Notes: generated from the sequence alone by a model not told the origin. A stretch of 58,484 nt of DNA from Psammoneis japonica (GCA_008632985.1 QPGO01000317.1:1-58484); one strand, 5' to 3'; positions 5,601 through 51,249 are shown, numbered from the stretch's first letter. Numbers and translations: made by a program.

Positions 5601-6236
5601 AGTGTGTCAATTTGCTCAGCCCAGGCACTGAGTCAAGCAAGCAACTGGCTGAGCATGTGTTGATCATTTGAGTTTTGAGTGCAAGGATGGTGGCTCATCA
5701 GAGGCCACAATGTGGTGCTGTTCACTTTCTCCTTTGTCTCATTTGGGACATTCAATGTTGTGTGAGTGCATTGTTTTTTTTTTAACTTTGCTTGCAAAGG
5801 TGTCAGTCACGTTGAAATTGTTGTCACCTTTTTGTGTGTGTTGTTGCTGCCTTTTTGTTTTGATTTAATTTCAGCAATGCATTTTCATTTCAATTTCATT
5901 CGCGCACAATGCGTTTTCTTTTGACAACTTTGTTGCATGTTCATCAAAATGTTAAATTTGACAGTTCTTTTCAACAGCTCCACCCCACTCATGCACCACC
6001 ACAGAGGATGGCATTTCTTCTGTGCCCAAGTCAGCCCCATGAGCACTTGGCTCATTGTTTTCACCTGCACTTGCCAGAATTTCAGTCCATTGCTCTCCAC
6101 CTGGTTTTTGGTGCATTTTCTGCATGTGCAATGCTCTGCCTGTTTCATGACAGTGCATCCTCTGCCCAAAATGCATTTGATGAGAGTGTGTGCTGTCATG
6201 ATTCATGTGCATTCTACATGAATCGGCAACTGACTG

Positions 6237-9352: not shown

Positions 9353-11911
9353 ATGACACCCCAGCTCACACTGCTGACCTCACCATGTCGTTTTTTCGTG
9401 ATTTACACACTGTCGAGCAAGCATCCAAGTTCCTTGATGTCTTTGCAGCGGCCTTGCACGTTGTGGAGCTACTTGAGGGGGAAACATGCTCCATCTCTGG
9501 ATGCAACTGCCCTGCCGTGTGCCGCAACAGATCAAGAGGACCTGGCTCCGGTCACTTTTGCATTCTCCACTGTCAAGGGTGGTTCCCAAAAGCTGATCAA
9601 GAAAGCAATTGTCAAGGGTGGGGTCTCTGTGGGTCTCAACATCTCTGTGATGAAGCACTTGGTTGCAAACAGAGTTGCTGTTGCTGTGACGACAGCTGCT
9701 TGAAGATCGGCTGCTGCACAACCAACGCAAGGATGCCTCGAAAGAAGGAAATTTGGACCAAGATTGTAAATGCCATGGGTGGAGACCTCTCAGATGTGGT
9801 GAAGGACAAGCTTCAAAATGAGCCATGTGCGGGACTGTGGCTGGCCCCGTGGCATTTTAGACTGGAAGAAAGGACACACAATCCCAAGACGAAAGAATGG
9901 ACGATGAACGAGATTGATCCCAACAAGCAATGTCATGATGGCGACCACTTTGCACGGACTGGTTTTCCACCACCAAACCACCTGCCTTCAGACTGAATTG
10001 CATGCAAGCTTTCTGATCCTGCTTGGGAACGACCAATTGACAGGTGGAAAAGCAAGCAGGCGGCATCAGTGCGAGCCGCAGGCTTGCCGTCGTGGGTTGT
10101 GGCACACCGTTTGGTCAAACCACTGAGTGAGCGTGATCCCAAAACTCCTCTTACACAAAACTCAAGTTGTTGCAAAGAAAATGTCTAAGATGGCTGCATT
10201 GAAAACAGAAGAGTCAGAAAAGAAGGATGACATCATTGCAAATCTTCGCAGCACCCTTGCACTCGCAAACCACGACAAGAATGTCTCTGAGAAGAATGCA
10301 AAGCAACTTCAGAACCAACTGGAGTCCTGCAAATTGGAACTCATTAAGTCCAAAGAGACAATGCTCGAGTTGGAAGACGAGTTGGTGGCTGCTCATGCCA
10401 CAAACAAGGATCGTCCTTTGTCTTGCAGCAACCTTGCGCCAGGTGGCAGACTTTCAAAGGCAGTGAGGACGCATGCGCATTTTTCCAACTGTGATTCTAA
10501 TGAGGCCTTCCTGCGTGTTCTGAATTGGGATGATGACACAGAGGGAGGTGGTTGCGACCATGGCGATGGACTGTGTGTTGGCTTTCGTCAACACAGCAGG
10601 GTGTCTGCCAAAGAACGACTCAGAGAAGTGGATGTCAGTGACCAGGAGTTTCCCACCAAACCTGAAGCAAGAGTTGTTGATTGGAAGACCAAATGCTTGA
10701 TCTGTTCTGTGCATGCAAAACTTGGAATCTCGTACGAAGCCATGGAACCTTTGTTTGCCATCTCTCCTGGCATCATCAGTGACATGACACATGCTTGGGC
10801 TGTCTTCTTGAATCATTCTCTGTCACTGTGGTTTCCGACTCCAACCAGATCACAAATGCTGCGGGCTTTCCCTGATCAATTTGTGTGGGCTTATGGACAT
10901 GCCCTTGTCTTCTTACTTCTCGATGCAACAGAGTGTTGGACACAGACAACAACCAAGAGTGATGCTCACTCGAGTGTGCACAGTGACTGCAAAGGTCATG
11001 ACACAACAAAAATGCTTGCAGGCACAGATCCCATTGGTTGTTCCCATGATGGATCCATCACGGAAGATGGGTGCCCGGGATCAATTTCAGATCCTGTCGC
11101 AACAAAGATGAGCAAGCTTTTGGACAACGTGCCCTTTGGTCACACGACTCTGGATGACAAAGGATTCACGATCGACAATTTTGCAGCACGGAAGGGCGTT
11201 GGGACCCAACGACCTCCGAAGAAGACAAAGCTGCAGGTGAAGCAATCAGAAGCGGACACGGCTGCAACGCAAAAAGTTGGGAATCTGTGAATCTTTAGCA
11301 AGATGGTGAATGGAGCTGCAAAGATGTTGACGCATTGTTTTGATTTGCCAGTGCCGATCCTCCAGCTTGGTCTTGTGCCTTTGATGTTTCGAGTGGCACA
11401 TCTGATGCAGAACTTTCATCCTGCATTAATTCATGGGCAGACGTCATCATTCGTTGACAAAAATGGCAAGGTGCAGTCAAGAAAGCGACCATGCCGTGGT
11501 GAGATCCGATGGTGCGGCGCAACAGATGAAGGCCTGTTGGATTATAGAGGTCACATTCATCTTTGGGGCAACGTAAAAGAGGTTGATAGATTCACTTTTC
11601 TGAGAAACGAGCACCTAGACAAGAGTCTTGTCGAAACAGGCGAGATGGCACTGCAAGAGAAATGGGACAACAAGCTGCGAGAAGGTCACACGAAGCATGC
11701 AGTCGGCAACCCACAAATTATAACAACGAATGTCGACACTGTCGTTACAAAAAAGAGTGACCTTGCTGTCATTACAACAACGAGTAAAAGTGCTGTCGTT
11801 ACAAAGCATGTCGATGCTTTCATTGCAACACCAAGTAAAAGCACCACAGTTGCAATGCATGCCACCAACATCATTGCTGCAACAACAAGTGCCGACACGT
11901 CACCACTCTAA
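9353..11911 (+). pseudogene. ISL2EU/Harbinger-type DDE transposase with Cys-rich/THAP-like N-terminus, inactivated
   Basis: Motifs WFPTP..MLRAFP, LLDATE, HSDCKGHDTTKMLAGTDPIG (consensus YSxYKxxNTxKxLxGxxPxG), PGSISD and DDKGF. In-frame TGA at 11288 (probably from CGA) and a frameshift near 9390. Confidence 0.8.
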
Positions 11912-24287: not shown

Positions 24288-25405
24288 ATGTCGTCAGTGC
24301 CTGAAACCATGAAGGTATGTAGAATAAAAGAACACGCTTGAAGTGTGGTGCACGTTTTCCTTTCAACTTTCAACTCCTCCAAACGATTCAATTCTCATCG
24401 CAGGCAGTAGTGATTCATGCTACTGGGGATGCTCAATCTCTCAAGGTCACGACTGATTATCCGGTACCAACTCTCCAGCCCGGACAGGTCCTAGTAAAGA
24501 ACGAATTTGCAGGAATCAACTTTATTGACACCTATCACCGCAGTGGACTCTATCCTCGTAAGTTGCCCTTTATCCTTGGCGTGGACGGTGGAGGCGTTGT
24601 TGTAGCGGTAACTCCCGAGGCTGCTGACGTCAAAGTGGGAGATCGTGTTGCCTACAGCATGGTGGAAACCTATTGCGAATACACGGCGGTGCCGGCATCC
24701 AAGCTTGTTCCTGTTCCGGACGATATGGACATGACGGTTGCTGTAGCGTGCATGGTCCAGGGCTTGACGGCTCACTACCTCACCACGTCGGCTCATGCAA
24801 ACCTGATTCAAAAAGGAGAATGGTGTCTCATTTACAGTGTTGGTAGTGGAACTTGTCAGTGGGCCGCTCAAATGGCAAAAGCAAAAGGTTACAAGGTGAT
24901 TGGAACGTGTTCCAAAGGAAAGGCTGACGCTGTGCGAGCACTGAATTGTTGCGACGAGCTCATTGTGTTGGAAGAAGTTCAGGGAGCGTCGTATTCGGAT
25001 TACAGCAGCGTGGATATAGTTGAAAAAGTAATGGAGGTTTCGGGTGGGGAGGGCGTGAAATGCATTATTGATGGAGTTGGAAAGTCAACGGCCGACGTTT
25101 CATTGAGTTGTCTCGCAACAAGGGGCATTTTCATTTCGTTTGGCAACGCGTCAGGGCCTGTACCTGCCTTTCCAGTGCTAAAACTGGGTGGAAAGTCAGC
25201 TTTTGTGACTCGCCCAAAGGCGAGCGATTACACAGCCACGCGTGAAGAACTCATGGATCGAGCGCGCGATGTGTTCGGTTGGGTAAAAGACGGAACACTG
25301 AAAATTGTGGTGGACCAGGTGTTTGCCTTGGAAGATGCTGTGGATGGTCACGTCTATCTGGAGTCCGGCAAGAGCAAGGGGAAGCTCCTTTTTCGCGTGT
25401 CCTAG
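24288..25405 (+). CDS. NADPH:quinone oxidoreductase (zeta-crystallin/QOR, MDR family); exons 24288-24314 and 24404-25405
   Basis: MSSVPETMK then a GT..AG intron (24315-24403) in frame with AVVIH. Motifs GINFIDTYHRSGLYP, QGLTAHYL, DGVGK, SFGNASG and LESGKSKGKLL. Confidence 0.95.
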
Positions 25406-29630: not shown

Positions 29631-29729
29631 TTCCCCGCCCCCCCATAGATCTATTTCGCGCGTCAAAATGAATGCGTGACATTTTCATCGAGACAATTCT
29701 AACAGGTCTGAAGCTTGAACAATTGTTAT

Positions 29730-32700
29730 CCCCCGTGAAGATTTTCGTCTGTTTTTTGTCCGTTCGTGCCCACAGGGGCACGAAAGGAGGCTACGTAGGA
29801 CTGTACCAGCAAATCCTGTAGATGCACGTTTCCATGCCAACAAGATTCATGAACCTCTCAAACGAAAAGAGACAATGGCGTCGTTCTGGATCAACGCCGT
29901 AGTTGCTGCGTCTGAAACCGCAGCGCGCCGCTTTTCTGCTCGTAGACTTGTACGCTGTCCTGGTACAAAGGTCATTGCATGCATGGAGTCTACGATGAGG
30001 TCATGCTGAAGGAAGAATTCTCGAATTTGAATTCTCAGCAATCAACCGAGTTTGTGTACTTTCTATTTTTTTATGCTGCCAACCAAGTCTTACAATCACA
30101 CATCCCTGATTCTACCTGCATAAGACGACACTGAGATTTCAGTCCACACATAAGTTCACTTGCACCAATGGATGAATCGGCGTTGCACTCGGTGACGACG
30201 TCCGAATCAGATTGGGTGGAGCATTTCAATCCAACAGAGGACTTGAATTTTTGCGACGAGGATCTCCACTTGATTGAGGACAGCTTGATGGATAAGCATG
30301 ACAGAACCGAGCAGTCAAAGGACCGTCCAAAATGGAAAGTGGACAATGATGGGAAAGATGTTAAGATCACCTTTAGCCAAGCTCCCCAAAAGGTGTGGGA
30401 GACGGCCAAAGCCGAGATTCAGGGATGTCGCGAGAGGGTGCAAAAACTTGCAGGAAAAGAATTCAAATCGATTGATCCCATTGAGGACATTGTGTTGCTG
30501 TTTGTGGGTGGTGCACGTCCTCTCATGCAACTTCTGGAGTCAGAGTTGTCGCTCAAGTTTCAAGAAGCTTCTCAATTTCTTGCCACCCCACTGCAAGCAA
30601 AAGGCATGTCGGTTGTCAGTTGAAGAGTTGTATGATGATGACGACATAAATTGTGCTGGGCTAATGACCAAAGAGAAGTACAAAATGGTGTGGAAGTTAA
30701 TGGGCCGTTCAGGCGATGCGTCATCGTCAACGGCTCGTAAGAAAAAGCCATTCTGGGAAAAATTCCAAGATGGGTTCAACGAGACGTGTCAAGAAATAAA
30801 TGTGAGCCAGTCAGCATCCTTGATTGTTTCATTGGACGACGATAAAAAGAAAGCTGCAGTCAACAATGGAGATGACATGCTGGGTCTGAAGCAGGTTGTG
30901 CATGCAGACAAGCGAAAGGGCATCGTCGGTCACACAGCCGTGTCCCCTGCAACTCTTTTGACGTGCGGTGTTTGCTGGGAACGAGTGGGCGACACAACTT
31001 GTGATTGTCATGTAAATCTTGTTGAGACAACATTTGGACGGAGGCCAACGCTCGACCGAGTCACGTTTTGCTCTGATCGCGGTTGTTGGACGATGAAGCT
31101 TCTTACATGCTTGCTCGAGAACGGAGCCGACATTCATGGGACGGTGAGGCGTCAGCATTGGCACCACTTTGCTTATGACCAGACATTGAAGATCAGCGAC
31201 CCCAGGGTTTTGATTGACACGACAGGGCCGGCAACACTTTGCACGGGGGTTGCATCAGTTTCGGAACGGAAAGTGGATATAAATGCTTTTCGAAACGGCA
31301 CGAATGGCGTGGTGTTGTCTATGTCAACTATGCATCATGGTGCCCATTGGGATCTTGTCCTCAAGGGGGGGAAAGAGCAAGTGTCAAAGCGTGTTCCACT
31401 TGTTTTAAGTCCCGAATGTCGTCATGCTCACACGTTCCGACGGTTTCTTGAAGATCAGCCAATTGATGAAGAGACGATCAAGGAATTGTCGAGGTTGAAT
31501 GTTGATCATGTTACAGAGCATCAAGGTTATTCAGAATGGTTCCAAGGACGCAAGTGTGCATTGACCTCCTCTGGTTCTGATGCTCAAGTTTCAGTTCACC
31601 TTAGATTGGACAAAGCGCGAGAGCAGAGGCAGTCGCATTGGGTGTGCCTTGAGAAGCATCTCGACACGGCATCTGGTGTCGAAGATTTGGTGTCTCAAAA
31701 TGATGACGATGATACGGCACCGGCTCAGAATGGCAACAATGATGCCACTGCACAATCCAATCCAATGACTGTTGGTGAAGGGAATGCTGCTGGCTCAGAG
31801 GACACCGATGATGATGACATTGTAGATTGGGCTGAGTTGGAAAAACACTTAGATTCAGACATGGAAGAGGAGGAGCGGATTTCTGTTATCGAGAGTCGCC
31901 GTTGGGAAGCAAAGGAGGCGATGAAGAAAGCAAAGGAAATTCTTAGTGATGCAGTTGACTCCACCGAACGAAATGAGGTGTTGCGAGCCAAACTAACATC
32001 GGAGTTGAAAGCTGGCGAGCACAAGGATCTCCTGAAGGCGTTCGTCAAACAAATGGGGTGGAAGGTTTGTAAGACGCACAAGGCAAACCTGAAAAACGCA
32101 GTTACGTGGCTAGAGTGTACCCCCGCCTCTCGACCCTACATCGTGCTGAACAAGGAGCAACTGAAGGTAAGCATGTGTAATTGCTGCTACTGACATTGTT
32201 TTACTATAGATCTAACCGAGTCGCTCCGAACCATTATTTGCTGACAAAGGCAAAATACCGAGAATGTATTAACAGCACGATACCGTCGAGTGTGACAAAA
32301 AACGATGACTTCATAGCGATTCTGAGCGGTGAAGTCTCCGCACCAGTTGCAAGAGATGGCGACAGTGAGCCAAAAATGCCACTGGAAGCAATGGTGAAAA
32401 CCACTTTTCTTCCACCACTCAAAGGTGAGGCGGCGGAGCTCTGTAGATTGGGACATGAGATGGAAGAACAGTACGGAAAAGATTTTCTTGGTGTTGCAAG
32501 CGGCGAAGGAGTGCGACTCGAAAACGGATCCGTATTTGTTGCAAACAATCTCTTCAGAGCCGGCCTGATACAGAAGCAAAATCGCCCTTATCAAAAGGAC
32601 AGTCCAGACTTCCTCTGCACTGGAACAATAGACGATAAGCGAATCGTAGCGGTTGTCGAGATGAAGGCGCGTTGCAAATCTACTACCGCCGCCAAGGAGC

Positions 32701-34234
32701 GTCAGCGCATCTCCGAAGTTGGTGAATTTTCGTTTGTATCATGTGATTCGCCTGAGTTACGCAAGTTCATACTTAAACGTTCAGAGGCAGTTCAGGTGAG
32801 CTGATGCACGGAATAACTATTTGATACTGTCGTTGTAACGGTAACTCACCTCAGTCTCCACGACTTCCTCGCTACAGTGCGCTCATCATGCAAGCACCCT
32901 TGGAGTCAACCACGTCATTCTTGCCACTGGAGACAGAGTAGGCCTTACAGCAATGGTGGTTATTGAGTACTCCGACGAGTTCCTTGAAAACTACGAAAAG
33001 TGCATCAACGACATGTACGAGTCGGCATTGAAGTGGGCATACGAGGAGGGCGTCGACATTCCAACGGAAGAGCTCAAGGCTGCTGTGAAAACTGCACGAG
33101 TAAAGGTGGACTATGAGTCATTTATGAAATCGGTTTACTTTTGGAAAGAACTGACGAAGCCTCAGTACTTACCACTCCCACCGTGCGAGAGGATCATTCC
33201 CATGCAGGATGCGTACTGGAACAACACCAAGCATGGGTCGGACGTCAAAACCCAGTACTGCCAAAACCTATCAGCCCCAATTCCTGTCACATCTGCCGGA
33301 GCTAAGGCATACGACCGCATGCAAATGACAGCACTATCCGACATCCACAAAGGCGCTACCATGTTTATTACCAAGGAAGATCTCAACCAGTACAATTCCC
33401 TTCACGACTTCAGAGACGATGCAAAGCACAAGATGAGCTTCAGAAAAGCACTCCTTCGATTGTCTAAGTTTTTCAAGAAGCTGAGCCAGCAAAATCTCCA
33501 AAGTGGAATTGGTTCTCCTTCGTCTTTTACAGGGATCGTTACACCATCACCAGCAACTCCAGTACAGCCGCCGAGGTGGATGCGCGGTGAAATTCAAAAG
33601 GAACCAACCAATTTTGTAGCAAAAGGAACTGGAAAGTCTCCCAAGCGCTCTCACCTAGAAGCTCTACTGAAACCAAAGGACAGTTCTGAAGAGGTCCCTT
33701 CCAAGCGATTCAAGAGTTGTCGGGGTGTACCTGTGTTCAGAGCAAATGAAAACAATGGAAGTAAGAAAGGGAGTGGAGCTTTGGCGCGATGTATCATGTG
33801 CGACTCCAAGACACATTGGTATTGCTCTGGCTGTCGTCAATGGTATTGTTGCGATAGTCCCCGTCCGCAAAGCGCTGGAGTCCCATACTTTCAAGATTCG
33901 TCAACGTACCGTGATGGGAAAAACAGGGATCGACCAATCGCCGGCGTGTACACATGCTTTATGCACTGTCACCCATCCATTGTGAACCAGGGATAGTAAT
34001 ATGTATTTGTATTTAGTGAATATATCATCTTTTTGACCACCGGCGTAATTGTAGTACTTTGGAATATCATTTGTTGACAAGACGAGCGTCGCTTGTGTTG
34101 ATGCTTTATCAATGAGAGCCGGTGTTTGTTTTGCACGTACAACTCGGTATGAAACCTACAGGGGCGTCGTTCGTGCCCACAGGAGCACGAACTTTTGCGT
34201 TCGTGCCCACACGCGCACGAAACTATCACGCGGG
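29730..34234 (+). mobile_element. piggyBac-like DNA transposon, 4505 bp
   Basis: TTAT TSD at 29726-29729 and 34235-34238. Imperfect TIRs begin CCC (cccccgtga / tcacgcggg). Subterminal palindromic boxes ttcgtgcccac..gcacgaa at about 29763, 34170 and 34200. Confidence 0.85.
30168..33996 (+). pseudogene. piggyBac-like DDD transposase with an inserted YqaJ/lambda-exonuclease domain and C-terminal Cys-rich domain; frameshift at about 30585; predicted introns 32167-32249 and 32796-32877
   Basis: piggyBac motifs: IVSLDDDK (D1), FCSDRGCW (D2), IHGTVR, YWNNTKHGSD (D3, compare YNxxKGGVD) and RCIMC..KTHWYCSGC. YqaJ motifs: QGYSEWFQGRKCALTSS, LGHEMEE, DSPD, VEMK and VQCAHH. Both predicted introns are GT-AG and preserve frame. 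Confidence 0.8.
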
Positions 34235-34590
34235 TTATTACGTTGTTTTCCTGAGGATAGAAGATGATGACGAGTCACCGACGCGACAATGTCTGTACGT
34301 ATGTACAATGTTATTCCAGAAAAATGTGAATATTTGAATATGACACGTACAGGCATTACAGTATATGTATGTTTGTGAGAATGTATGTATTCATTTGGTA
34401 CTTTTCTCAGAAATGGTTTCTTCAAAGACTAAGACGAATCAAAAATATCAAATATTCAATGATACATTTTGTTGAAATTCATGTACATGACTAAATTTTT
34501 TGAAATCGGCGTCCATTACACATTTTTTCAATCGCCATCAAAGCGGCAGGTCCGGTCAACTTCCGCCAAACTACTCGCAGATGTTGGACG

Positions 34591-37500
34591 ATGGTAGTAA
34601 TTCTAACCAAAAGGGGCGGAAAGCTGGACACCAGCCAAGTGATGCCGTCGACATGCGCATCCAAAGGAATGTTAGACGATGGAACAGACGACAAAGTCGT
34701 TCGAGACGCTGCTAGACAACTTCAAAAGCGATCTACTAGTGCCCTCCGGCCACACTTAAAAGCAATCGGTTCTGTCAACGATGTCAGTCAGCCTCTCTCC
34801 CTTTTTGTGGAAATGTTTACTTCAGGCAACGAAGAGTTCAGAAACGTGGACTCTCCACGTCCTTTTCACAGCAACTCATTTAACGAGGATGGGATTGAAA
34901 TAGACTATTTCCAACGCTGCCCGTCTAGCGCGGACCACGCGGAATACAAACTGCTTGAAAGCGACAACGGGGACGACGAAGGCGACGGCCTCGATACTCT
35001 CGACTTTAACCAGATTGTTGCATCCCCGATTTCCAAATACAAAACCGAGAAAGTTGAAACTGCACAACCCCTTGACATTGCACTCGATCGTTTCCTCGGC
35101 AACGAAAAGAGCTCTCGCCTGAACACCTCACCAACAAACACTGGCCCAAAACCATATCTTTTGAAGAGCTTTGCCGAGGAGCAACCAATACACATAGAAA
35201 TTGACGAGGACGGTCATGAAAGCCTGTATGCTCTAGACTTTCGCTCAATAGAACGACCCAAGGACCTCGAGGACAAAACCGAGAAAGTTGAAACTGTACA
35301 ACCCGTTGAGAGTGCACTCGATCGATTCCTCTGCGAAAAGAGCTCTCGCTTACACAAACCACACACAAACAATGGCCCAAAACCATATCTTTTGAAGAGC
35401 TTTGCCGAGGAGCAACCAATTGACATAGAGATTGATGACGACGGTCATGAAAGCCTGTATACTCTAGACGTTAGCTCAAGAAAACGGCCCCAGGACCTCG
35501 AATACAAAGCCGAGAAAGTTGAAACTTCACAATCCTTTGACAGAACACTCGATCGTTTCCTCTGCGAAAAGAGGTCTCGCTTACACAACCCACAAACAAA
35601 CAATGGCCCAAAACCGTATCTTGTAAAGAGCTTCGCCGAGGAGCAACCAATCGACATAGAGGTTGACGAGGACGGTCATGAAAGCCTGTATACTCTAGAC
35701 GTTAGCTCAAGAAAACGGCCCCAGGACCTCGAATACAAAACCGAGAAAGTTGAAACTTTACAATCCCTTGACAGAACACTCGATCGTTTCCTCTGCGAAA
35801 AGAGGTCTCGCTTACACAACCCACAAACAAACAATGGCCCAAAACCGTATCTTGTAAAGAGCTTCGCCGAGGAGCAACCAATTGACATAGAGGTTGACGA
35901 GGACGGTCATGAAAGCCTGTATACTCTAGACGTTAGCTCAATTAAACGATCCAAGCACCTCGAGATCAAGAATGAGAAGGTTAATCACGGGCACAGGAAA
36001 GTGTGTCCTTCAGCTGGCAGCCAGCGAACCAAACTCGCTTTGAAGAAATCAGGATACCGAGGGACAGACGACGACATCCTCTATACTCTTGGCTTTAACC
36101 AGATAAAAAGATCTGAGAGTCATCTCGAAGATCAGGCTGAAAAAGCCTATTCTGGCGAGACAAAGCCCTGTGACGGAGTGGTTGATCGCCTCTGCCCCGG
36201 GACGGACTCACCTTCAGACAGCTCTGTAACCAAATTTGAAAGACCGTTTTATGTAAAGCACCTCGCTTCGACGAAACCAAGATACCTACAGGCCGACGAA
36301 GACAGCCTCTATACTCTTGACTTTAACCAGATGAAAGGATCGGGGAATCTCAAAGACAAGATTCAAACAGCTGATACTAGTGCGGCCGAACCCTTTGACA
36401 ATGTGGTTGATCGCCTCTGCCACGTGAAGGAAAGTCCTTCAGAAGACAGTCCTCCAACCAACGATGAAAAACCATATCGTGTGGCGCACTACGCCTCGAA
36501 GAAATCAAGATACCGAGAGATGAATGACAGCTCACTAGCCAAAACAGAAGAACCAAATCTTGCGAAACACTGCGCTACGAAGGATTCACAATACAGAGAG
36601 ATTGATGACGACACTCTCTATACTCTTAATTTCAACAAGATGAACGGGTCCGAGAATCTTCTTGGAGACAAGGTCAAAGAAGCTGAAACTCGTGCGGCAC
36701 AACAACCCTTTGACAGCGTTGTTGATCGCCTCTGCCGTGGGAAGGACTTGCCTTCCGAAAGTTCATCAACCAACATTGAAAAGCCATATCACGTAAAACA
36801 CTGGGCTACGAAGAAATCAAGATACAGAGATGTTGACGACGACAGCCTCTATACTCTCAACTTTAACCTGATCAAAAGATCTGAGGTCCTCGATGACAAT
36901 GTTGAGAAAGTTGACGAGGCAGAACCCTTTGACAAGGTAGTCGATAATCTTTGCGACGGGAAGGGCTGTCTGTCAGAAACCCCACGAACCAAAAATGGAC
37001 CAATACCAGAACTCGTTGAGAAAACTTGTAGTGCAGACCCCATCGACGCCATACTCGACAGACTCTTCAACGGGAAGGACCTTTCTTTAGAATTCCAAAT
37101 ACTCTTCGGTGACCAAAAACCTTATCTTGTGAAGGAGTTCGCCGCGAAGAAAGCTAAAGACAGAGAGATTCAAAATGAAAGCCATGTTTTGAATTCTAGC
37201 GGTGGCATGAATATTAAGGAGTTCGCCAAGTGGAAAAGGGAGTTTGCCAAGTTCAAAAAGGAGAAAGCGAAAGCTGCTACTCTTGCTGCAAGAGCGAGAG
37301 AACGGCGTCGACGGCTGGAGGCCTTTAATCCCATGTTTGAAGAAATGTTTGATAACAAGAGGACGAGTAACAGGGTTAGTGGCGAGCAGCCGTGGGCATT
37401 CACCGACGAAGACTGGGACTCCTTTGAAGATTTTACGACAAGGGAAGGTCGTGCATCCGGAGATGACGCCACATGGGAAACCGCGTCAACATATTCTACC

Positions 37501-37902
37501 GGTACTTTTCCCGACATCAGCAAGCACTGTGTCGTTGACGAGTCGATATCCAAAGCAATGAAAGAGGTAGAGGATGCCCACGCGATACTTGCTGAGTTTG
37601 TGGAACTTCACGGCATCCCCTTTGCTCGACTCACAGAAATGTTGGAGAGCACCTGGCGTCCGAAACAAGAACATGCCTCGAATTCTCATTTCGACAGTAA
37701 AGCAAAAAAATCAGCCAAAGGTGTTCGTGGTGTATTCAGGAGGTCGAATCCCCGTCACTACCGTGAGGAAAAAGCCAAAGATTCTGGTGGCGATGATTGC
37801 AGTGTCGATTTATTCGGGGGCTCGAATCCACGTGAGAAAAAAGCCAAAGAAGCTGATCGTGATGATTGCAGTGTCGATTTGTTCAGGACCATGCTACTCT
37901 AG
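34591..37902 (+). CDS. Hypothetical 1103-aa protein with repeats of about 77 aa
   Basis: Long intact ORF with normal Tyr content. The motif (D/E)SLYTLD/NF recurs about 9 times. Confidence 0.8.
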   Translation: MVVILTKRGGKLDTSQVMPSTCASKGMLDDGTDDKVVRDAARQLQKRSTSALRPHLKAIGSVNDVSQPLSLFVEMFTSGNEEFRNVDSPRPFHSNSFNEDGIEIDYFQRCPSSADHAEYKLLESDNGDDEGDGLDTLDFNQIVASPISKYKTEKVETAQPLDIALDRFLGNEKSSRLNTSPTNTGPKPYLLKSFAEEQPIHIEIDEDGHESLYALDFRSIERPKDLEDKTEKVETVQPVESALDRFLCEKSSRLHKPHTNNGPKPYLLKSFAEEQPIDIEIDDDGHESLYTLDVSSRKRPQDLEYKAEKVETSQSFDRTLDRFLCEKRSRLHNPQTNNGPKPYLVKSFAEEQPIDIEVDEDGHESLYTLDVSSRKRPQDLEYKTEKVETLQSLDRTLDRFLCEKRSRLHNPQTNNGPKPYLVKSFAEEQPIDIEVDEDGHESLYTLDVSSIKRSKHLEIKNEKVNHGHRKVCPSAGSQRTKLALKKSGYRGTDDDILYTLGFNQIKRSESHLEDQAEKAYSGETKPCDGVVDRLCPGTDSPSDSSVTKFERPFYVKHLASTKPRYLQADEDSLYTLDFNQMKGSGNLKDKIQTADTSAAEPFDNVVDRLCHVKESPSEDSPPTNDEKPYRVAHYASKKSRYREMNDSSLAKTEEPNLAKHCATKDSQYREIDDDTLYTLNFNKMNGSENLLGDKVKEAETRAAQQPFDSVVDRLCRGKDLPSESSSTNIEKPYHVKHWATKKSRYRDVDDDSLYTLNFNLIKRSEVLDDNVEKVDEAEPFDKVVDNLCDGKGCLSETPRTKNGPIPELVEKTCSADPIDAILDRLFNGKDLSLEFQILFGDQKPYLVKEFAAKKAKDREIQNESHVLNSSGGMNIKEFAKWKREFAKFKKEKAKAATLAARARERRRRLEAFNPMFEEMFDNKRTSNRVSGEQPWAFTDEDWDSFEDFTTREGRASGDDATWETASTYSTGTFPDISKHCVVDESISKAMKEVEDAHAILAEFVELHGIPFARLTEMLESTWRPKQEHASNSHFDSKAKKSAKGVRGVFRRSNPRHYREEKAKDSGGDDCSVDLFGGSNPREKKAKEADRDDCSVDLFRTMLL
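35041..35968 (+). repeat. Coding tandem repeat, 4 x 231-234 bp
   Basis: aaa(a/g)ccgagaaagttgaaact units start at 35041, 35275, 35506 and 35737. Confidence 0.95.
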
Positions 37903-43167: not shown

Positions 43168-44136
43168 TCAATAGTAGACGCGACGGCTGTCGCCGCCCAG
43201 CAAGCGAGTCTGCGGAGGTCCTTCATGCGATGGAGTACCAAACACTTGTACATAGTAATGGGATTCTCCTGAGACAGCATAGCCAACTCCCATATCGGTG
43301 AACTGACCACTCAAGAGTGAGGAGTTAGGCTTCTCAAGCCACCCTTTTACTGCACTGTACGGGTCATTGAAGGGTTCACTCTGGAAAAAGCCTGCCGCAA
43401 AGAAACTGTATTGATATTTCTCTGGGCGACGAATGTCATCAATGGATGAAAAGGAACCCCGGCGAGCAGCGTTTTCCGCATGCTGTTGTGCCACGGCGTT
43501 GAGCTCGGCTGACGAGCTCAGATAATGCAAGTTTGAGTTCCTTCGCGCTTGATTCGTCAAAAGATACAGAATTTCTCGAGTGTCACCCTCACCCTGCACT
43601 GCTGGGGTGCCAATCGGTTTGCCAAAGACCTGAACGTAGTAGTGGGTGTCACCTACCGGACAATATCCGTAACCGACCTCAGTAAAGTCTGGGTTGAGAA
43701 GATTCTCTCGATGGCCTTTCGACGTCATCCATCCATCCACGGCGGCTACTGGACTGTTGCTCGGTTGCTGCATGAAAAGATTTTCGCCAATGGATCTATA
43801 ACGGTAGCTTGTCGTTTTGACTCGATCACCCAGAGTTGATCCTGTGTAGCCGGTATGAGAGAAATACCCGTTTCGTGCCATACACACCGCATGCTGCTGT
43901 GCTGCCTTGGAAAGTTCGCTGTCGTATCGAAGCTGGCTTAACCCATACTGGCTTCTTTTTTCATTCGTATAGTGCCATAGAAGCTCAACCGTGGCGTCAT
44001 ATACATCCACGGGGGCTTGTCCCGTAAAAGCCGGTTGTTGATTGCGACTCCAGGAGGAGGGTAGTGACGACGACCAAGCTTGGGCAGAACTGACAAAGGA
44101 AGCTGAGAGAAGCACCCCCAGCAGACGAGCAAGCAT
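43168..44136 (-). CDS. Secreted protein with two CAP/SCP (YkwD-like) domains
   Basis: Signal-peptide-like MLARLLGVLLSASFVSSAQA. Motifs TNEKR..GL..L, AAQQHA..MA..GYFSH, GENL, WMTSKGHRENLL and YYVQVFG (twice). Confidence 0.88.
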   Translation of the reverse strand: MLARLLGVLLSASFVSSAQAWSSSLPSSWSRNQQPAFTGQAPVDVYDATVELLWHYTNEKRSQYGLSQLRYDSELSKAAQQHAVCMARNGYFSHTGYTGSTLGDRVKTTSYRYRSIGENLFMQQPSNSPVAAVDGWMTSKGHRENLLNPDFTEVGYGYCPVGDTHYYVQVFGKPIGTPAVQGEGDTREILYLLTNQARRNSNLHYLSSSAELNAVAQQHAENAARRGSFSSIDDIRRPEKYQYSFFAAGFFQSEPFNDPYSAVKGWLEKPNSSLLSGQFTDMGVGYAVSGESHYYVQVFGTPSHEGPPQTRLLGGDSRRVYY

Positions 44137-44887
44137 TGTAGAGTTTGTTAAAGAAAAAGAACACACCAGACTTGACGCAAAGATCGAGTGAAGAGTCCAC
44201 TTCCGACAAACGCCAGCAATAACCAGCAACAACCTCAACCGTCGCAGAGCGCAGAGTCAGTCGCACACGAGTGTTCCGCCTTCCGCCGTGTTCTGTTCGA
44301 TGTTGGTGTGCGTGCGAACGCGCGGCTTACCCCATACTGTACAAAAGAAAATCCAAAATTGGTTCCTCCTCTTTTAGGTGGAACTCTCTACCGGTAGATC
44401 GAAGTCTGAAACCGAAAGATTTTGGATTGCCGCCCTCGCTGCTGTCAGAAAATAGAGCCATGACGATTGCCTGCACCAATCATTTTGCTGCATTTTGCGC
44501 CGGGCGTTCGAATCAATTGCAACACACAACGGTTGTTTCGGTGCGCACTTTTGCGTGACCCACGCGACATGACCACCCCAACATGTGTCAGTGCATGGTG
44601 CTGGTTGTTTTGCTTCTGACCGTTCTGTCTTCTGTGAGGTTTCATGAGGCTGTCTGTGCGTGTTGATGTTGTCTAGTTGTGCATGTTGATGTTGTCTAAG
44701 GCAAGCTGCGTTGGATTGAGTGAGTGTGGAAATGTGCGAAATTTGCGCATTGTTGCAGCTTCTTTGCCAAACAGTTGGTCCCTGTTTGTGGCCGTGCTCA
44801 ATCCGCGGCGGCTTGAGTGAAAGTCCATGTGCGCGCATTTTGCGCATTGATGCAGTTGTCTTTGCCAAATGGTTGTTTGCAATTTGC

Positions 44888-45504: not shown

Positions 45505-48500
45505 CTACGTTGACATTTCTGCGCACTGTTGCTGAGAAAAACACGTGGCGCTTCTCTCCTTCATGAGTCTTGTCAAGGCTTTGCAGCCTTCTGGGACCTT
45601 GCATTTTCGCAGGTCCTTGCTCAGTGGCTTTCGCATGAACAGCCCTTCTCTGGTCTTTACTCTGGAGAGCACAACACACACCCAATTCTGAGTGTAGCTC
45701 CAAGAGTGCACAAACAACTGCGGGACTCCACTCCCTTGCAGTTTGTGCCCTGCAGTGGCATTGTTGATGACAAATGGCAGCTGGGTTGCCTTCAGTTGGA
45801 AAGTGTGCCTTTGTTCATCGCCTTCTTCTAAAATTAGGCTGGGCTTGGCGATGCAAGCCCTGAAAGCATTTGTTTTTGGCTCAACTAAAAACTTCGCGGG
45901 GTCGATGCTTTTGTTGCAGTGTTCCAATGCAACGTGGTCTACCTGACTGGCAAGTGCAGCAGGAATGCTGATGTTGTTGTCTAAAGTTGCCAGTCTTGGT
46001 TCCTGTCCTGGTTTGAGAACGACCTTGTCAACAGTGGCTTGCGTTCCGTTTGCTTGACCGTTTGCTGCATTTTCGTTGAAAGGTGTCATGACTCTGCATC
46101 TTCTGTAAATTCGTAAGACTGGATCCATTCTTCCAGATTGCATGATGACGTCTCCTTCACCACAGTTGTTCCAGAAGCTGTTGCAAACCGGAAATGGTTG
46201 GTAGAGTCTCGTGCCATTCTGCACCTGCAAGTCATCACTGAAAATCAACATTGAGTCAAGGACGTCTCCATCTCTTCTGTGCAGTGTTTCTGCTCTTTTT
46301 TTGAACAGGCCAGTGTCAATTGCATCTCTGTCCTCATTTGCGCACGCAGCACAGCGGAGGTCACTGGGCAGATCATCTTCATTCTGAACTGCTCGTTCGT
46401 TGATGTGCTCCATGTCGTCAACTGCAATCTCACCAGTGCGGAATCTCTCAAGCAGTTTTCCCCATGATGGATCGTCTTTAAACCTGTGTACACCACGAAG
46501 TTCTGTGCAGCAGTTGATCCACTCGTGAAACTCGGGACATGCATCTTTGTGCAGTGGTTTCACTCCTTTTCCGACTGGTTCTAGTTGCCTGAGGTCACCT
46601 GCGAAAACAATGTTCACACCACCGTGCGGCTTGCTTGATTCGCTCTTCAATGCTGTCAAATTCTCATGGAGTTTTTCCAGTTCTCTCTTGCTTGCAAAAG
46701 AAATCTCGTCTGCCACCAAAAGTCTTGTGTCTGACCATGCTTCAATTTGCTCTTCAGTTGTTTGCTTTCTTCTCATGAGGCATGCAACTCGGTGGATTGT
46801 GTCCCCTTTGAGAACAGTCGCATCCACTCCAGTCAGTGCAGTTGTTCTGATTGTGCTTGTTGTGAACGGCTGCTCAATGAGCGAGCAGCACTCTCTTCCG
46901 CATTCCACGACGAGGTCTGTTGTGGTTGATTTGCCACTTCCACCTGCACCATGTAGAAAACACACAAGTTGCAACGTTCCACGTCTTTGCACTTCCACGA
47001 GTTTCTTCAATCGGCGAAGGTTTGTTGCGAATTCGTGTCTGCCATTTCTCCCATTGAGTCCATTGCATGACGTCTCGTCTTGAAGAGCGTCTTGGCAGCA
47101 AGTGAGCACAAAGGTTCCTGCTAGAATTTCAAAGGCACGCTGCTGTTGCCTGTCCAGTCTTGCTTTCCCAGCCCAGTCTACGATGCTCACTGCAGATCCG
47201 TTTGCTTGACGTACATCGACGTGTTCTTCCAAACCTGTCACATCCTCAAACGACCTTCTTGTTCTTTGCGCTCTAGTCAGTGTCACTCGAACAATGTCGT
47301 CTCTTGACAGTGGTCTGCTGTGGATGTGTTGTTGCACTCCTTCATTCTGGTCTTCCTCGTCGGTGTCATCGCCGCCCTCTAGATTCTCAAAAAGTTGTCG
47401 TTCATTGACCTGGCTTTCCTCGTTTGGTGGGTCAGTGTGCATGTCTGCCAAGCATTTGCAACCACCCATGTGTGAACCTTTCTGTCTTGCACGTTTGCCG
47501 CTCAAATGCACAGGAACAACTGCTTGGTCGCTCAACCCAATGTCATCATCTTCTGGCTGCTCTGCCATTTCTTCCAAGAGTGCATCCAGCAGTTGACCCT
47601 GAACGGCGCCTGAAAGACCTTCTTCCTCGTCACTTTCGCAACAGTCAAACGCAACGTCAGCAGGTCTGGGTTGCTCTGTCTTTCTTTGCAGATCGTCAGA
47701 TGCACTTTTGAGACGAAGGCAGTTGGACTTGGCATCCTGCAGGTTCTGCAAGAAGTTCAAGTTTTCCTCTGCAATGACACCGGCTGCTGCGGAGAGTTGG
47801 AATTCACGCAGGCATGCACGGGTCATTGGTTTGAGTTCCGTCATTGTTCTGCAAGGCGCAAACAAGGCCAATGCCAACTTGCAGTGCAATTCTTTGTCTG
47901 GGTGTTGTTGGTTGCTGCGGATCTACAAAGGCAACTGCCAAACTTGGCTGCATCAGGAAAATCACACTGAAGTGCTTTTAACAATCGCGGTTGCTGTCGC
48001 TGTCTGACACCTTGAAGAAACTTGTTCTTCGTTGAATTGTAAGACGGGTGCCTGTGCACTCTGTTGTCGAACATCATCATGCCATGTTCGTTTTTCCTTG
48101 TGTTGCGAAGAACTTCGCACTCACTGAAAAACGCAAACGGACTGAGATTCTCCAGTGCTGTTGGACGACATGGGCAGTGCAAGGCCTGGCATTGGAAGAA
48201 CGGTGCATCGCCAAAATGGGCTACAGTCGCAGACACTTCGTCTCTTTCTAGTGTGCTGACAATGTCTTTCAAGGGGCACCATGCGGTCAAATGAGATTCG
48301 ATGAAACGGCTTCCGTTCCTTGTTGTGTAAGATGCAAGTGGTGGTCCAATGACGTTCGTCTTGTTGTGCGAGCAAGCACCCCACATGAGATGTCTGATTG
48401 CTTCCGATGCATCAGATGTGTGTTTCCGCAATTCCGTCGCTGTCCTGTTCGTAGTTCGAAGCACTTCGTCGTACGATGCAGTGTCATCTTTCTGGGCATC

Positions 48501-51158
48501 TTTTAGGATGTGCTTGATCGTGTGTTGAGCAGACGGTCCAGGCATCAACAAAGCAATGTTTGTGTTGCATGTCAGTTTTGATCTGCTTGTTGCAGGGCAC
48601 GACACGTTTTGAAAAGCATCGCACTTTCTCCTCTTCGGAACAACTTCCTTCACGCACCGATGCGTGAAAGTTCCATCCCAGCTGAACCACTTTATCTGAG
48701 TGTCATTTGCGTTCCTTGCCAAATTATTTGGACATGAAGCAGCTGGTTGCCTGTGACGGCAGTCACCCAGTTTGAGCTCCTCTCGTTTCCTTTTCCTTGA
48801 CTGCGTGTCCAGTTCCTCGTGTGGGGTTTTTTTGCGCATTTTACGCAACTCCACGCATTTGGGAAAACACGACTTCGTAACGTGCATGTGATGGTTGTAA
48901 GCTGCGTCCGGCACATGTGCCTCCATTGTCCCTTGCGGACCACTTCGCTGGTGTTGTACACACATTGCTTTTAGTCGCTTTGCATGGTCATCTGGATGGC
49001 GAGTCAGGCCAGGCACATGGTGCCGTGACTGTAAAAAGCTTTCTACAAACTCAACGTTTGTCCAGTGCTTGGTGCAGTGATGACAATGAGCAAACATTCT
49101 GCTCTTCGACTGCTGGCCGTCTTCATGCCTCAGGTTTCTTAGCTGTTGGTCGTCTGCTGCTTTTGGAGAGGTGCGACACATTTTTGGCACTGCACAGTCA
49201 TGATCGAATGCTCCACGCAATGCGTCAGTGCTGAAGTCCTCGCTGCAGATTGGCTCCGTGCTGCAGATCTTCTGAACCATGTTGGCAAGGCACTCAGCAC
49301 CTTCGCGTCGGATCTGTCTCATTGGCGAATGCAGTTTCTCTCTTGCATTGTTGATCAATGTGAACCAGATCTGCATGTGTCCATGTGCTGTCAGACGTCC
49401 CTGCTCCTCAACTGCGGCTAAAAATGCGGCTGGCCTGCCAATGTAGAAGTTAAAGTTTTCTCTTGGTTGGTTGGCACTCAGATCCCAACCCACTGCCTCT
49501 TCCACTGCAATGTCAAACAAGCACTCGAATGCAAAGGCTGTTAGACTGGGAAACTTTAGACGTGGTTCATTACGTTGCTTGGCCCTGCCAGCAAGAATTT
49601 CGTCCATCAGTTGTGTCACGTCTTCGTTTGGGTCCAGGATGACACCCGAGCACAGTTGTGCAAGAAACGAATTTGCATCGTCCAGACTGACGGTTGAGAA
49701 AATGCCACCCTGACCAAAATGATGCTGACAAGTTTCGGCGTTTCTCCTCATTTTCTTTGCTGCTTCATTGCTGTGTGGCAGAGACGCAGACACAACGTCG
49801 AGTGCACGCAAAAAGTGGTGCCCGAGTCCACAATCTCTTCTCTCGCCCAAGTTGCGATCACAAACAGCTCTGTCCACATCGTCCACTGTCAGTTCATTTG
49901 CAAACTGTGCAGCCTGATTCTTGTCCCTGACTTTCCACCCTGCACTCTGTGGCATCCTTTGCTTCATTGTCAAGTTGCAGCATGTTAACACGAAGAGCTG
50001 CTCGTGGAAGTGAGGCTGGGAAATCCATGCCAAGTGGTCGGCACAGTGTGCAAGGTTGGTGCCATCTGCAAGACTTCCGTCTTTCTTCATTCTCGTCTCA
50101 TTGATTCCTCCTCTGCCAAAAGGAAACCGCAGCAGACACGCGTCAATGAAGTTGTTGCCTTTGAAATCACTCGCAGATTCTTTAGACAACTGTGCTTGCA
50201 CCTCTAAATCAAATCCGTTGGCAGTGGCTTCGTGTACAAGATCTTTGAAGCAGTCCAGGTTGTGCTGACCACCAGTCGCAGGAGACATGGTTCCATCAGG
50301 AAAGCAAACATGAAATGACTCTGAGGTCTCAATGTTCGCATTTTCTCCTTCTTCTTCGCTGGTGCCATCGACAAGCACGGGATTCCGCAGATTACGCCCA
50401 ACTTCGTCTAGATTTGTCTGTTGGCACACCCACTCTTGGTCATGGTGCAACAGCCATTCCATCGCCCTCAGCATGCAGTGCGTCCTAATTCTGTTCTTTG
50501 AACGCGCAAGTTGTCTTTGCTCCGGAGTCATCTTTCCAGTCATCAGCACAATCACATTCTGATGTAAATTCAGTGCGTCGAAGTGCACAACAGTTCTTAC
50601 GATGCTTTGTGTCTTGACTTTGCAGTGTGTCAGACTTCCCTGAAGCTTCTTCTGTTTGCCGCCAAGGTGGCTGAAGCAGTGTCCGCATGTTTTCACTGGT
50701 GTGAGCATTGCCAACTCTACTTCGGTTAGAGACAACAGTTTGTGCGGCGGGGCACCGAAACAGCAGTTGTTCGCCATCGCGCACATTGGCATGACGGCTC
50801 TTCCCAGGCTTCTTCGGCATTCGCTGCAGCAAGTGAATCCGTCGACGCGTCGTCTGACTTCCTGTGCTGCGCATTGGGCACAGGGAGAAAGCAGCAGGTC
50901 TTTGATCCAATCAGCATCTTCATGCTCTACAGTGCAGCAGGACTTGAGACGATCAGATGCGCTGTTCCAGTCTGAAGGGGTGAGCAAGTTTCTTGCTGAT
51001 TCCAATGTTTTGAGCGGCAAGCAGCAAACTTCTCTAGGTTTCAGCAGAACGTCACAGACCAAACATGCGTGTGGTCTAAATTCTCCGTCTCTGTGCAGAT
51101 GAAGCATCTCAAACTTTCTGTTGATTGCACTGCAAACACTGGAGTTGGCCTCGTCCAT
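45505..51158 (-). pseudogene. Helitron Rep/helicase (HUH Y2 endonuclease plus PIF1 helicase), frameshift at about 47885
   Basis: Rep motifs: MANNCCFG..P..L..LTEVE, FPFGRGG, EEQGRLTAHGHMQIW (HUH), HMH..SC, CNTNI and HTIKHILK (from YxxKY). Helicase motifs: GAGGSGKS, ALTG, DEISF, GGVNIVFAGDLRQL, HRF, HKLQG and VVLSRV. Confidence 0.92.
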
Positions 51159-51249
51159 TTTAATTTAAGCTGACACTTTGGCTCAAACAAATTTCAAGAA
51201 GCCACTCAGCAAAAACAGTTGTTTTTTCAGTGCGATCACCGTGAAGCTG

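Follow-up and report, generated by a model that had tools for sequence, protein, structure and literature searches.

The window analysed here, a stretch of 58,484 nucleotides (nt) from Psammoneis japonica (GCA_008632985.1, QPGO01000317.1:1-58484), contains at positions 29730-34234 a single 4.5-kb unit with an imperfect terminal inverted repeat (CCC...GGG), TTAT flanks and subterminal palindromes. It carries one gene, whose product is predicted to be a piggyBac-like transposase with a nuclease of the lambda-exonuclease/YqaJ type inside its catalytic core. The features of the unit are as follows; P0001, P0009 and P0012 are related proteins, the last two of which are described below.

29726-29729, no strand: left copy of TTAT, a putative 4-bp target-site duplication (identical to 34235-34238; a single case, weak alone)
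29730-29750, +: left terminal inverted repeat, beginning CCCCCGTGA (aligned to the reverse complement of 34214-34234)
29763-29784, no strand: subterminal 22-nt palindrome, bp 34-55 from the left tip
30168-30587, +: coding piece 1a, which begins at the ATG and has 140 codons, for an acidic N-terminus and the first part of the helical DNA-binding/dimerisation domain (homology to P0012, P0009 and P0001 in tblastn)
30586-30589, +: run of four C with one extra base, a +1 frameshift relative to all homologues (frame switch between 30587 and 30589)
30589-32166, +: coding piece 1b, 526 codons; first and second catalytic Asp, GTVRR, β-rich insertion domain, start of the nuclease, acidic linker and SAP/HeH-like motif (homology, motifs)
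30832-30846, +: motif LDDDK, with the first catalytic Asp (this and the following motifs from translation)
31072-31086, +: motif SDRG, with the second catalytic Asp
31138-31152, +: motif GTVRR
31447-33204, +: lambda-exonuclease/YqaJ-like insert, including both introns (delimited by the insert-less P0009, which aligns up to 31446 and again from 33205)
31534-31572, +: nuclease motif EWFQGRKCALTSS (EW..R..LTSS)
32167-32249, +: intron 1, 83 nt, GT..AG, phase 0 (donor after the QLK codons; the acceptor joins the frames)
32250-32795, +: coding piece 2, 182 codons; nuclease core with GHxxE, DSPD, ExK and Q (homology, motifs)
32451-32468, +: motif GHEMEE
32598-32609, +: motif DSPD
32655-32672, +: motif VEMKAR
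Spanning intron 2, +: motif EAVQ/CAHH, the slash marking the intron
32796-32877, +: intron 2, 82 nt, GT..AG, phase 0 (homology, splice sites)
32878-33996, +: coding piece 3, 372 codons and stop; end of the nuclease, third catalytic Asp, second half of the helical domain, basic linker and Cys/His-rich domain (homology, motifs)
33217-33243, +: motif WNNTKHGSD, with the third catalytic Asp
33790-33972, +: Cys/His-rich tail
34170-34221, no strand: two subterminal 22-nt palindromes, at 34170-34191 and 34200-34221 (bp 44-65 and 14-35 from the right tip)
34214-34234, -: right terminal inverted repeat, ending ...CACGCGGG (aligned to the left tip)
34235-34238, no strand: right copy of TTAT, putative target-site duplication (sequence read)

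Read across both junctions, the element runs TTAT, CCCCCGTGA...TCACGCGGG, TTAT, that is, CCCCC...GCGGG between the two flanking tetranucleotides, with termini of the piggyBac type, 5'-CCC...GGG-3'. When the two 21-nt tips are aligned as inverted repeats they score 8.0, compared with -6.6 ± 3.1 for random 21-mers from the window, and the observed score is equalled by only 0.02% of 5000 such 21-mers. The 22-nt palindrome is present in three copies (starting at 29763, 34170 and 34200) against 0.00 expected from 100 shuffles. According to the parts of the published description drawn on here (PMC7351741), the two ends of piggyBac are asymmetric, and at one of them a palindromic internal repeat is the binding site for a Cys-rich-domain dimer. 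By analogy, the palindromes of the present element are putative binding sites for a dimer of the transposase Cys-rich domain.

The gene comprises 1220 codons of the standard code, is interrupted by two introns, of 83 and 82 nt, and changes frame once, by +1, within the C-run; all four coding pieces are open on the + strand. The introns were called from homology together with GT..AG boundaries. For intron 1, the acceptor at 32249 is the sole one that joins the frames and matches P0012; a canonical-looking acceptor at 32209 was rejected because it breaks the frame. In seven relatives in one alignment (A1), K or R followed by V is found at the intron-1 donor, with an early stop after it, and we read these stops, from the sequences, as probable read-through of a conserved donor. 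The homologues run straight through the C-run (...FLAT-HC...) and the window shifts frame exactly there, which may reflect either a real mutation or a homopolymer assembly error. A preliminary description of this locus, made from the sequence alone, had proposed CCC...GGG tips with a TTAT duplication, and a single spliced frame with a fixed order of catalytic motifs. The tips and flanks are as it stated, the former beyond chance and the latter seen in one case; every motif it listed lies on the + strand in the order given; and the single frame holds, given two introns and one +1 correction at 30586-30589.

The same order of motifs is found in a related diatom. A word-indexed search with the first long coding piece found 11 relatives, most of them open reading frames (ORFs) on short contigs that stop just past the intron-1 donor, and the last coding piece as query found two longer proteins, P0012 and P0009. 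P0012 is a transcriptome-derived protein of 1177 residues, from Extubocellulus spinifer by its source's naming. It is colinear with all four coding pieces of the window, with 33-45% identity per segment (tblastn, pairwise E values of 6e-92 and 3e-101), and has in a single frame the first Asp, second Asp, GTxR, nuclease motifs and third Asp. Because this transcript-derived protein spans all four pieces, a fused mRNA exists in a related diatom, and the possibility, raised in the preliminary description, that the pieces are separate transcripts falls away. P0009 is a shorter case that lacks the nuclease and is discussed with the alternatives below. An exhaustive phmmer search with P0012 returned 789 representatives at E ≤ 1e-3, 352 at ≤ 1e-10 and 72 at ≤ 1e-30. 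About 30 of the family proteins are full-length (1146-1384 residues) and have the same domain order, an 'unknown protein' of Seminavis robusta being one named example; the three family members that carry an organism name are all from diatoms. There are many diverged copies, including one 90% cluster that is distributed over 26 contigs.

Both sets of catalytic residues are conserved across this family, at 88-100% per column. In a 117-sequence alignment (A2), the DDD columns are conserved in 67 of 70 rows for the first Asp, 70 of 70 for the second and 79 of 85 for the third, and the nuclease columns in 57 of 60 (R), 85 of 90 (E), 88 of 99 (D), 84 of 90 (E), 79 of 90 (K) and 79 of 93 (Q). The W, R, T and S of the W..R..(T/S)S motif are 84-98% conserved, and the Cys/His columns of the C-terminal tail 91-97%. 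Residues at both the second-Asp and the third-Asp columns are present in 38 rows. In 32 of these the two columns are separated by 392-739 residues, and 25 of the 32 retain all nine key residues; the remaining six are N-terminal fragments with misaligned tails, plus P0009. MAFFT misplaced C-terminal fragments in A1 and in a further alignment, A4, as well as the P0009 row in A2. Since the same order and both catalytic sets are conserved across the family, and the insert has no terminal repeats, a nested element with its own ends, or a chance juxtaposition, is excluded for practical purposes.

Related elements could also be delimited as whole units. With a narrower alignment (A3) as query, 12 metagenome loci were found, eight of which encode relatives at 26-31% identity, and two of them, L001 (176-4654) and L005 (413-7037), are whole related elements. 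Each has palindromes of its own sequence, 24-25 nt long. One copy lies at the left end, whereas at the right end L001 has two and L005 four, at comparable distances from the tips (32-38 bp on the left, 10-17 bp on the right). The tips vary among relatives, from CCTGGGG...CCCCAGG in L005 to CAATATCC... in L001. In L005, about 2 kb of extra DNA lies past the transposase, with an antisense ORF of 381 codons (5341-6486) that has no Pfam match. The nearest cluster in the ESM Atlas, which we take as a lead only, is represented by a 1206-residue 'hypothetical protein', with SAP in 20% of members, all of them Eukaryota and two labelled Oomycota.

The predicted structure of P0012, the closest full-length relative, provides the link to known enzymes. 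An AlphaFold2 model made with A2 has a mean predicted local distance difference test score (pLDDT) of 80.9 and a predicted template modelling score (pTM) of 0.78. Foldseek against the PDB placed piggyBac first (6x67_C, E 4.9e-6), followed by Tn5 (1.1e-5), piggyBat (2.2e-4) and lambda exonuclease (3slp_A, 7.6e-3, probability 1.00). The 984 Foldseek matches were re-ranked with VIA-align, and a separate alignment covered all 48,161 representative PDB chains. In the re-ranking, piggyBac has a Z score of 26.0 over 369 residues, with a root-mean-square deviation (rmsd) of 3.5, model residues 100-1044 being aligned on chain residues 117-539; piggyBat has a Z of 23.8 and Tn5 of 17.3-18.5. For the nuclease, lambda exonuclease gives Z 15.2-15.6 with 205-208 of its 225-228 residues aligned to model residues 438-925, and LHK-Exo gives 14.3-14.4 with 179-180 of 194-195 residues. 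Against all chains piggyBac is again the top match, with Z 26.0, ahead of piggyBat (21.8), Tn5 (17.4), lambda exonuclease (15.2), Hermes (5.9) and Sleeping Beauty (5.9). Cas4 and Dna2, which share the nuclease fold, also match (Z 7.3-9.6).

The model shows how the two enzymes would be combined. The piggyBac alignment jumps over the insert and includes the helical DNA-binding/dimerisation domain, which in the model is all-helical and assembled from segments before and after the catalytic domain; the RNase H-like core with its DDD triad and β insertion domain is likewise present, and the insert part of the model has the PD-(D/E)xK fold of the lambda-exonuclease type. In piggyBac, the insertion domain follows the fifth strand and has three strands, the helical domain has been called structurally unique, and D447 sits on the second of the two helices that are joined by G444-G445 (PMC7351741). 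The corresponding family consensus around the third Asp is WN..KGGSD, and the P0012 model has two helices there, at residues 943-951 and 953-964. Because these piggyBac landmarks map onto the model, the insert can be placed as entering after the β insertion domain and a few residues before the third-Asp helix pair. The nuclease is itself interrupted: a SAP/HeH-like helix-extended-helix motif (32029-32112, + strand), preceded by an acidic linker predicted to be disordered, splits it between the N-terminal Arg motif and the core. A Pfam SAP or Rho_N match is found inside the insert in 2 of 25 full-length relatives.

We conclude, with a probability that we put at about 0.8, that 29730-34234 is a copy of a cut-and-paste transposon whose piggyBac-like transposase has an internal lambda-exonuclease/YqaJ-type nuclease, and that it belongs to a large unannotated family. 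The transposase is predicted to consist of a two-segment helical domain, an RNase H-like DDD core with a β-rich insertion domain, and a C-terminal Cys-rich domain, with a complete PD-(D/E)xK nuclease, split by the acidic linker and SAP/HeH-like motif, lying between the insertion domain and the third-Asp helix pair. The boundaries, the gene model, the colinearity with the fused diatom transcript and the conservation of both catalytic sets are shown here, as are the two folds in the predicted model. In the fold comparison the chimera of two nucleases suggested in the preliminary description holds up for a relative, with piggyBac as the top match and the interrupting segment a nearly complete lambda-exonuclease fold, and the homologues with the same domain order that it called for are found among the full-length relatives.

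Several results weigh against this conclusion. None of 35 sequences matches any transposase or YqaJ model in Pfam (E limits of 1, 10, 0.01 and 0.01), none of 10 has a relevant match in PHROGs, and a profile of A2 searched against PDB sequences gives 23 matches at E ≤ 10, with no transposase and no exonuclease among them; phmmer against PDB sequences likewise returned nothing relevant. In NCBIfam, one of 10 proteins matches a lambda-exonuclease family (TIGR03033) with an E value of 0.01, but its score of 16 bits is below the threshold of 68. The preliminary description had named failure of profile searches to support either domain as a ground for abandoning it, and taken literally this is what has happened: searches with hidden Markov models recognise neither domain, and the homology is visible by structure only. 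The fold evidence comes, moreover, from a predicted model of a relative that is 33-45% identical to the window by segment. The window's own coding piece 3 was modelled with AlphaFold2 at a pLDDT of 83.3 and gave no Foldseek match at E ≤ 0.001; its Cys-rich part, a candidate counterpart of the cross-brace Cys-rich domain of piggyBac, aligns to piggyBat 9c0f_D 499-569 with Z 4.5 over 63 residues at 19% identity, which is in the noise range of the tool. The flanks of the element are TTAT on both sides, a repeat as long as that of piggyBac, which is specific for TTAA, but different from it in sequence, and a single observation from one copy. No consistent target duplication of 3-5 bp was found around L001 or L005. 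As regards mobility, the window holds one copy of the element, and its +1 frameshift means that this copy is either inactive, and so possibly defective, or mis-assembled at the homopolymer. Finally, P0009, a transcript-derived protein, lacks exactly the nuclease module.

Is this, then, a piggyBac transposase in the strict sense? It is distinctly unlikely, in our judgement, that the transposase represents a separate superfamily within the wider IS4/Tn5/piggyBac class, with a likeness to piggyBac that stems from deeper ancestry or from convergence. Such an origin would fit the lack of a Pfam piggyBac match and the TTAT flanks, as well as the high Tn5 scores, the closeness of the two Foldseek E values and the fact that several eukaryotic superfamilies have no solved structure for comparison. 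The fold comparison nevertheless separates the two, with Z 26.0 and 369 aligned residues for piggyBac compared with at most 18.5 and about 310 for Tn5, and a lower rmsd. The piggyBac alignment takes in the helical domain noted above as structurally unique, and the GG-x-D motif, the Cys-rich C-terminus, the CCC...GGG tips and the asymmetric palindromic sites are all piggyBac-like. The piggyBac lineage named in the preliminary description is thus borne out by the fold, the DDD triad and the tips, and is not borne out by the flanks or by a Pfam model. Because the TTAA feature and the Pfam match are both lacking, the transposase is called no more than piggyBac-like here, by its predicted fold and end architecture. 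Least likely of all, and highly improbable, is a domesticated, immobile host gene derived from such a transposon. The single copy in the window and the conservation of catalytic residues over a wide family are what such a gene might show, but the terminal inverted repeats, the 4-bp flanking repeat and the subterminal palindromes are all in place, the window copy is frameshifted, and the family comprises many diverged copies, as in the cluster on 26 contigs. Related elements also differ in end sequence while keeping the same layout, and the neighbourhood is rich in other transposons.

P0009 raises a different question, whether the nuclease is an integral part of the enzyme. This protein, flagged 'complete' and from Gedaniella sp. 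by its source's naming, is 74% identical to P0002, another relative, up to exactly ...RPFGSN, after which come DAFWNKTKHGSD and the remainder of the C-terminus. After the left junction P0002 has Val (GTN), and a C-terminal ORF, P0189, reads ...PTQ/DGYWN, the slash marking the point of rejoining; the last codon before that point is Gln in P0189 and in the window, where it is CAG. From these sequences, the P0009 junctions would fit either GT...AG splicing of the whole module or its precise deletion. The insert might accordingly be regarded as optional or separate, an alternatively spliced intron or a nested gene, with the insert-less form as the working enzyme and the fused frame as a by-product. 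We consider this very unlikely. P0009 is itself the only one of eight proteins with the junction region in which the insert is absent, Val follows the left junction in just three of nine close relatives, and a GT is missing at the corresponding position in the window. The window and the full-length relatives alike have an open frame across the two junctions, the nuclease catalytic residues are kept in 85-95% of the rows that cover each column, and no repeats or ends specific to the insert are present.

What might a second nuclease do inside a transposase core? In the transposition mechanism that we propose, by analogy with piggyBac, the DDD site would nick the 3' ends of the element and join them to a target cut with a 4-bp stagger, and the helical and Cys-rich domains would recognise the tips and palindromes, with Cys-rich dimers on the one left and two right palindromes. 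The insert, from its fold family, would be an active Mg-dependent nuclease that may degrade 5'-phosphorylated strands in the 5'→3' direction at the breaks made by the transposase, and it could thereby favour recombination when the vacated donor site, or the joints, are repaired. This role is put forward tentatively, at somewhat less than even odds. Resection of the 5' strand is favoured because the best structural matches, lambda exonuclease and LHK-Exo, are processive 5'→3' exonucleases and not endonucleases, and because of the W..R..(T/S)S motif, which we take to resemble the 5'-phosphate pocket of lambda exonuclease. The main rival to resection is that the nuclease cuts the non-transferred (5') strand at the transposon ends. 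In Tn7 the restriction-enzyme-like TnsA works beside the DDE protein TnsB, and a TnsA-like role here would give a two-active-site transposase without a hairpin step. The position of the insert would suit this, as it exits the core beside the third-Asp helix pair, close to which, just before the pair, piggyBac Y439 and N440 contact the hairpin at the transposon tip (PMC7351741). The conservation of both catalytic sets and the presence of Cas4 and Dna2 among the structural matches also fit. The features that favour resection count against it, however, as does a DDD core that looks complete, with no sign that the hairpin route has been lost, and we regard strand cutting of this kind as doubtful. 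A bolder version, in which a single polypeptide with two active sites uses the nuclease, placed beside the DDD site, on 5' strands at the element's ends or in the donor flanks and the DDD site on 3' ends, and in which some hosts make a nuclease-skipping isoform (as in P0009) of what would then be a switchable enzyme, appears unlikely.

The element resembles several known systems in part. With piggyBac and piggyBat (6x67 and 9c0f, Z 26.0 and 21.8-23.8), its best structural matches, it shares the helical domain, the RNase H-like DDD core and the β insertion domain, together with the GG-x-D sequence on a helix pair and CCC...GGG tips. The Cys-rich C-terminus and the 4-bp flanking repeat are possible likenesses, and the palindromic internal sites, distributed asymmetrically between the two ends, are a further likeness to piggyBac. 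It differs from piggyBac in the module of about 500 residues between the insertion domain and the third Asp, in having no sequence-profile similarity detectable through Pfam or PDB sequences, in having TTAT in place of TTAA (in one copy) and 22-nt palindromes in place of a 19-bp repeat, and in an insertion domain with more strands in the model than the three of piggyBac. The nuclease is predicted to have nearly the whole fold of lambda exonuclease (3slp, 1avq) and LHK-Exo (3syy), together with the conserved D...ExK and the Q that follows it; its N-terminal Arg-containing motif is a possible further likeness. In contrast to lambda exonuclease and YqaJ, it is embedded in a transposase, is split by the acidic linker and SAP/HeH-like motif, and falls below the Pfam and NCBIfam thresholds. 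Tn5, of the IS4 family, is the second-best structural class, with an RNase H core and an all-β insertion domain at the same position, but with a lower Z score and higher rmsd, and it has neither a Cys-rich domain nor a helical domain of the piggyBac type. The third catalytic residue of Tn5 is a Glu.

Two other groups of eukaryotic cut-and-paste transposons are associated with nucleases of this kind. ISL2EU elements, of the PHIS superfamily, have a DDE/D transposase and a YqaJ-type exonuclease, as described in the parts of the source used here (PMC4122938). There the exonuclease is a separate ORF and the transposase is PIF/Harbinger-like with an N-terminal THAP domain, whereas here the nuclease lies in frame inside a piggyBac-like core. 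An identity with ISL2EU was rejected on these grounds, the best fold being that of piggyBac and no Pfam THAP match having been found in the window ORFs and relatives scanned. In KolobokE, a lambda-exonuclease-like PD-D/ExK nuclease is fused downstream of the DDD/E transposase domain, and Kolobok elements are characterised by a C/DxxH signature, zinc fingers inside the core, a third catalytic E and RR...YY tips (PMC9587614, in the sections drawn on here). None of these Kolobok features is seen in the present family, in which the nuclease separates the second catalytic residue from the third, a D, and the tips are CC...GG; Kolobok identity was likewise rejected. Hermes, the hAT-type structural relative in the Kolobok comparison, reaches a Z score of 5.9 only.

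The surroundings of the element contain other mobile elements and host-type genes. At 45505-51164 (- strand), adjacent long ORFs with Helitron_like_N and DUF6570 domains (47841-51164) and with a PIF1-like helicase/AAA_30 domain (45505-47922) probably belong to a single Helitron-type Rep/helicase gene that a frameshift or an intron has divided, and an ORF at 10127-11290 (+) has a DDE_Tnp_4 (PIF/Harbinger-type) transposase domain (E 1.4e-9). Because of these Helitron and DDE_Tnp_4 ORFs we regard the region as transposon-rich. An open frame of 1132 codons at 34504-37902 (+), which starts 270 bp past the element and has no Pfam match, encodes several repeats of about 75-80 residues (...EKVET..., ...NNGPKPYL.KSFAEEQPIDIE.D.DGHESLYTLD...). 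Ordinary host-type genes are represented by an ORF with a CAP (cysteine-rich secretory protein) domain at 43168-44256 (-; E 1.1e-37) and a zinc-type alcohol dehydrogenase ORF at 24323-25405 (+).

In the literature searched, as judged largely from titles and abstracts, no piggyBac-type transposase was found to be described as having an internal lambda-exonuclease/YqaJ domain. A diatom study of 2009 mentions, in the part available, an uncharacterised element 'weakly related to piggyBac' (PMC2806351), which may or may not belong to the same family. A survey from 2025, which covered 13,000 piggyBac elements, reports N-terminal and C-terminal fusions (PMC13461360); in its main text and four supplementary files the words 'exonuclease' and 'diatom' are absent, and 'YqaJ' is absent from those four files. 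PiggyBac is among the leading gene-delivery tools, and its diversity has lately been mined at scale. The present family is a lineage that Pfam-based annotation has missed, with a second nuclease inside the catalytic core, and it offers a natural case of a large domain that is tolerated at a defined site in a piggyBac-type core. For annotators of diatom genomes it provides a handle on a family of 'hypothetical proteins'.

Finally, after ISL2EU, with its separate ORF, and KolobokE, with its C-terminal fusion, this is the third link between lambda-exonuclease-type nucleases and eukaryotic cut-and-paste transposases, which suggests that the processing of 5' ends may be generally advantageous to such elements. 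If the reading of the protein as a transposase with two active sites were true, the family would be a naturally occurring 'transposase plus end-processing' fusion and, among cut-and-paste elements of eukaryotes, a new mechanistic class.

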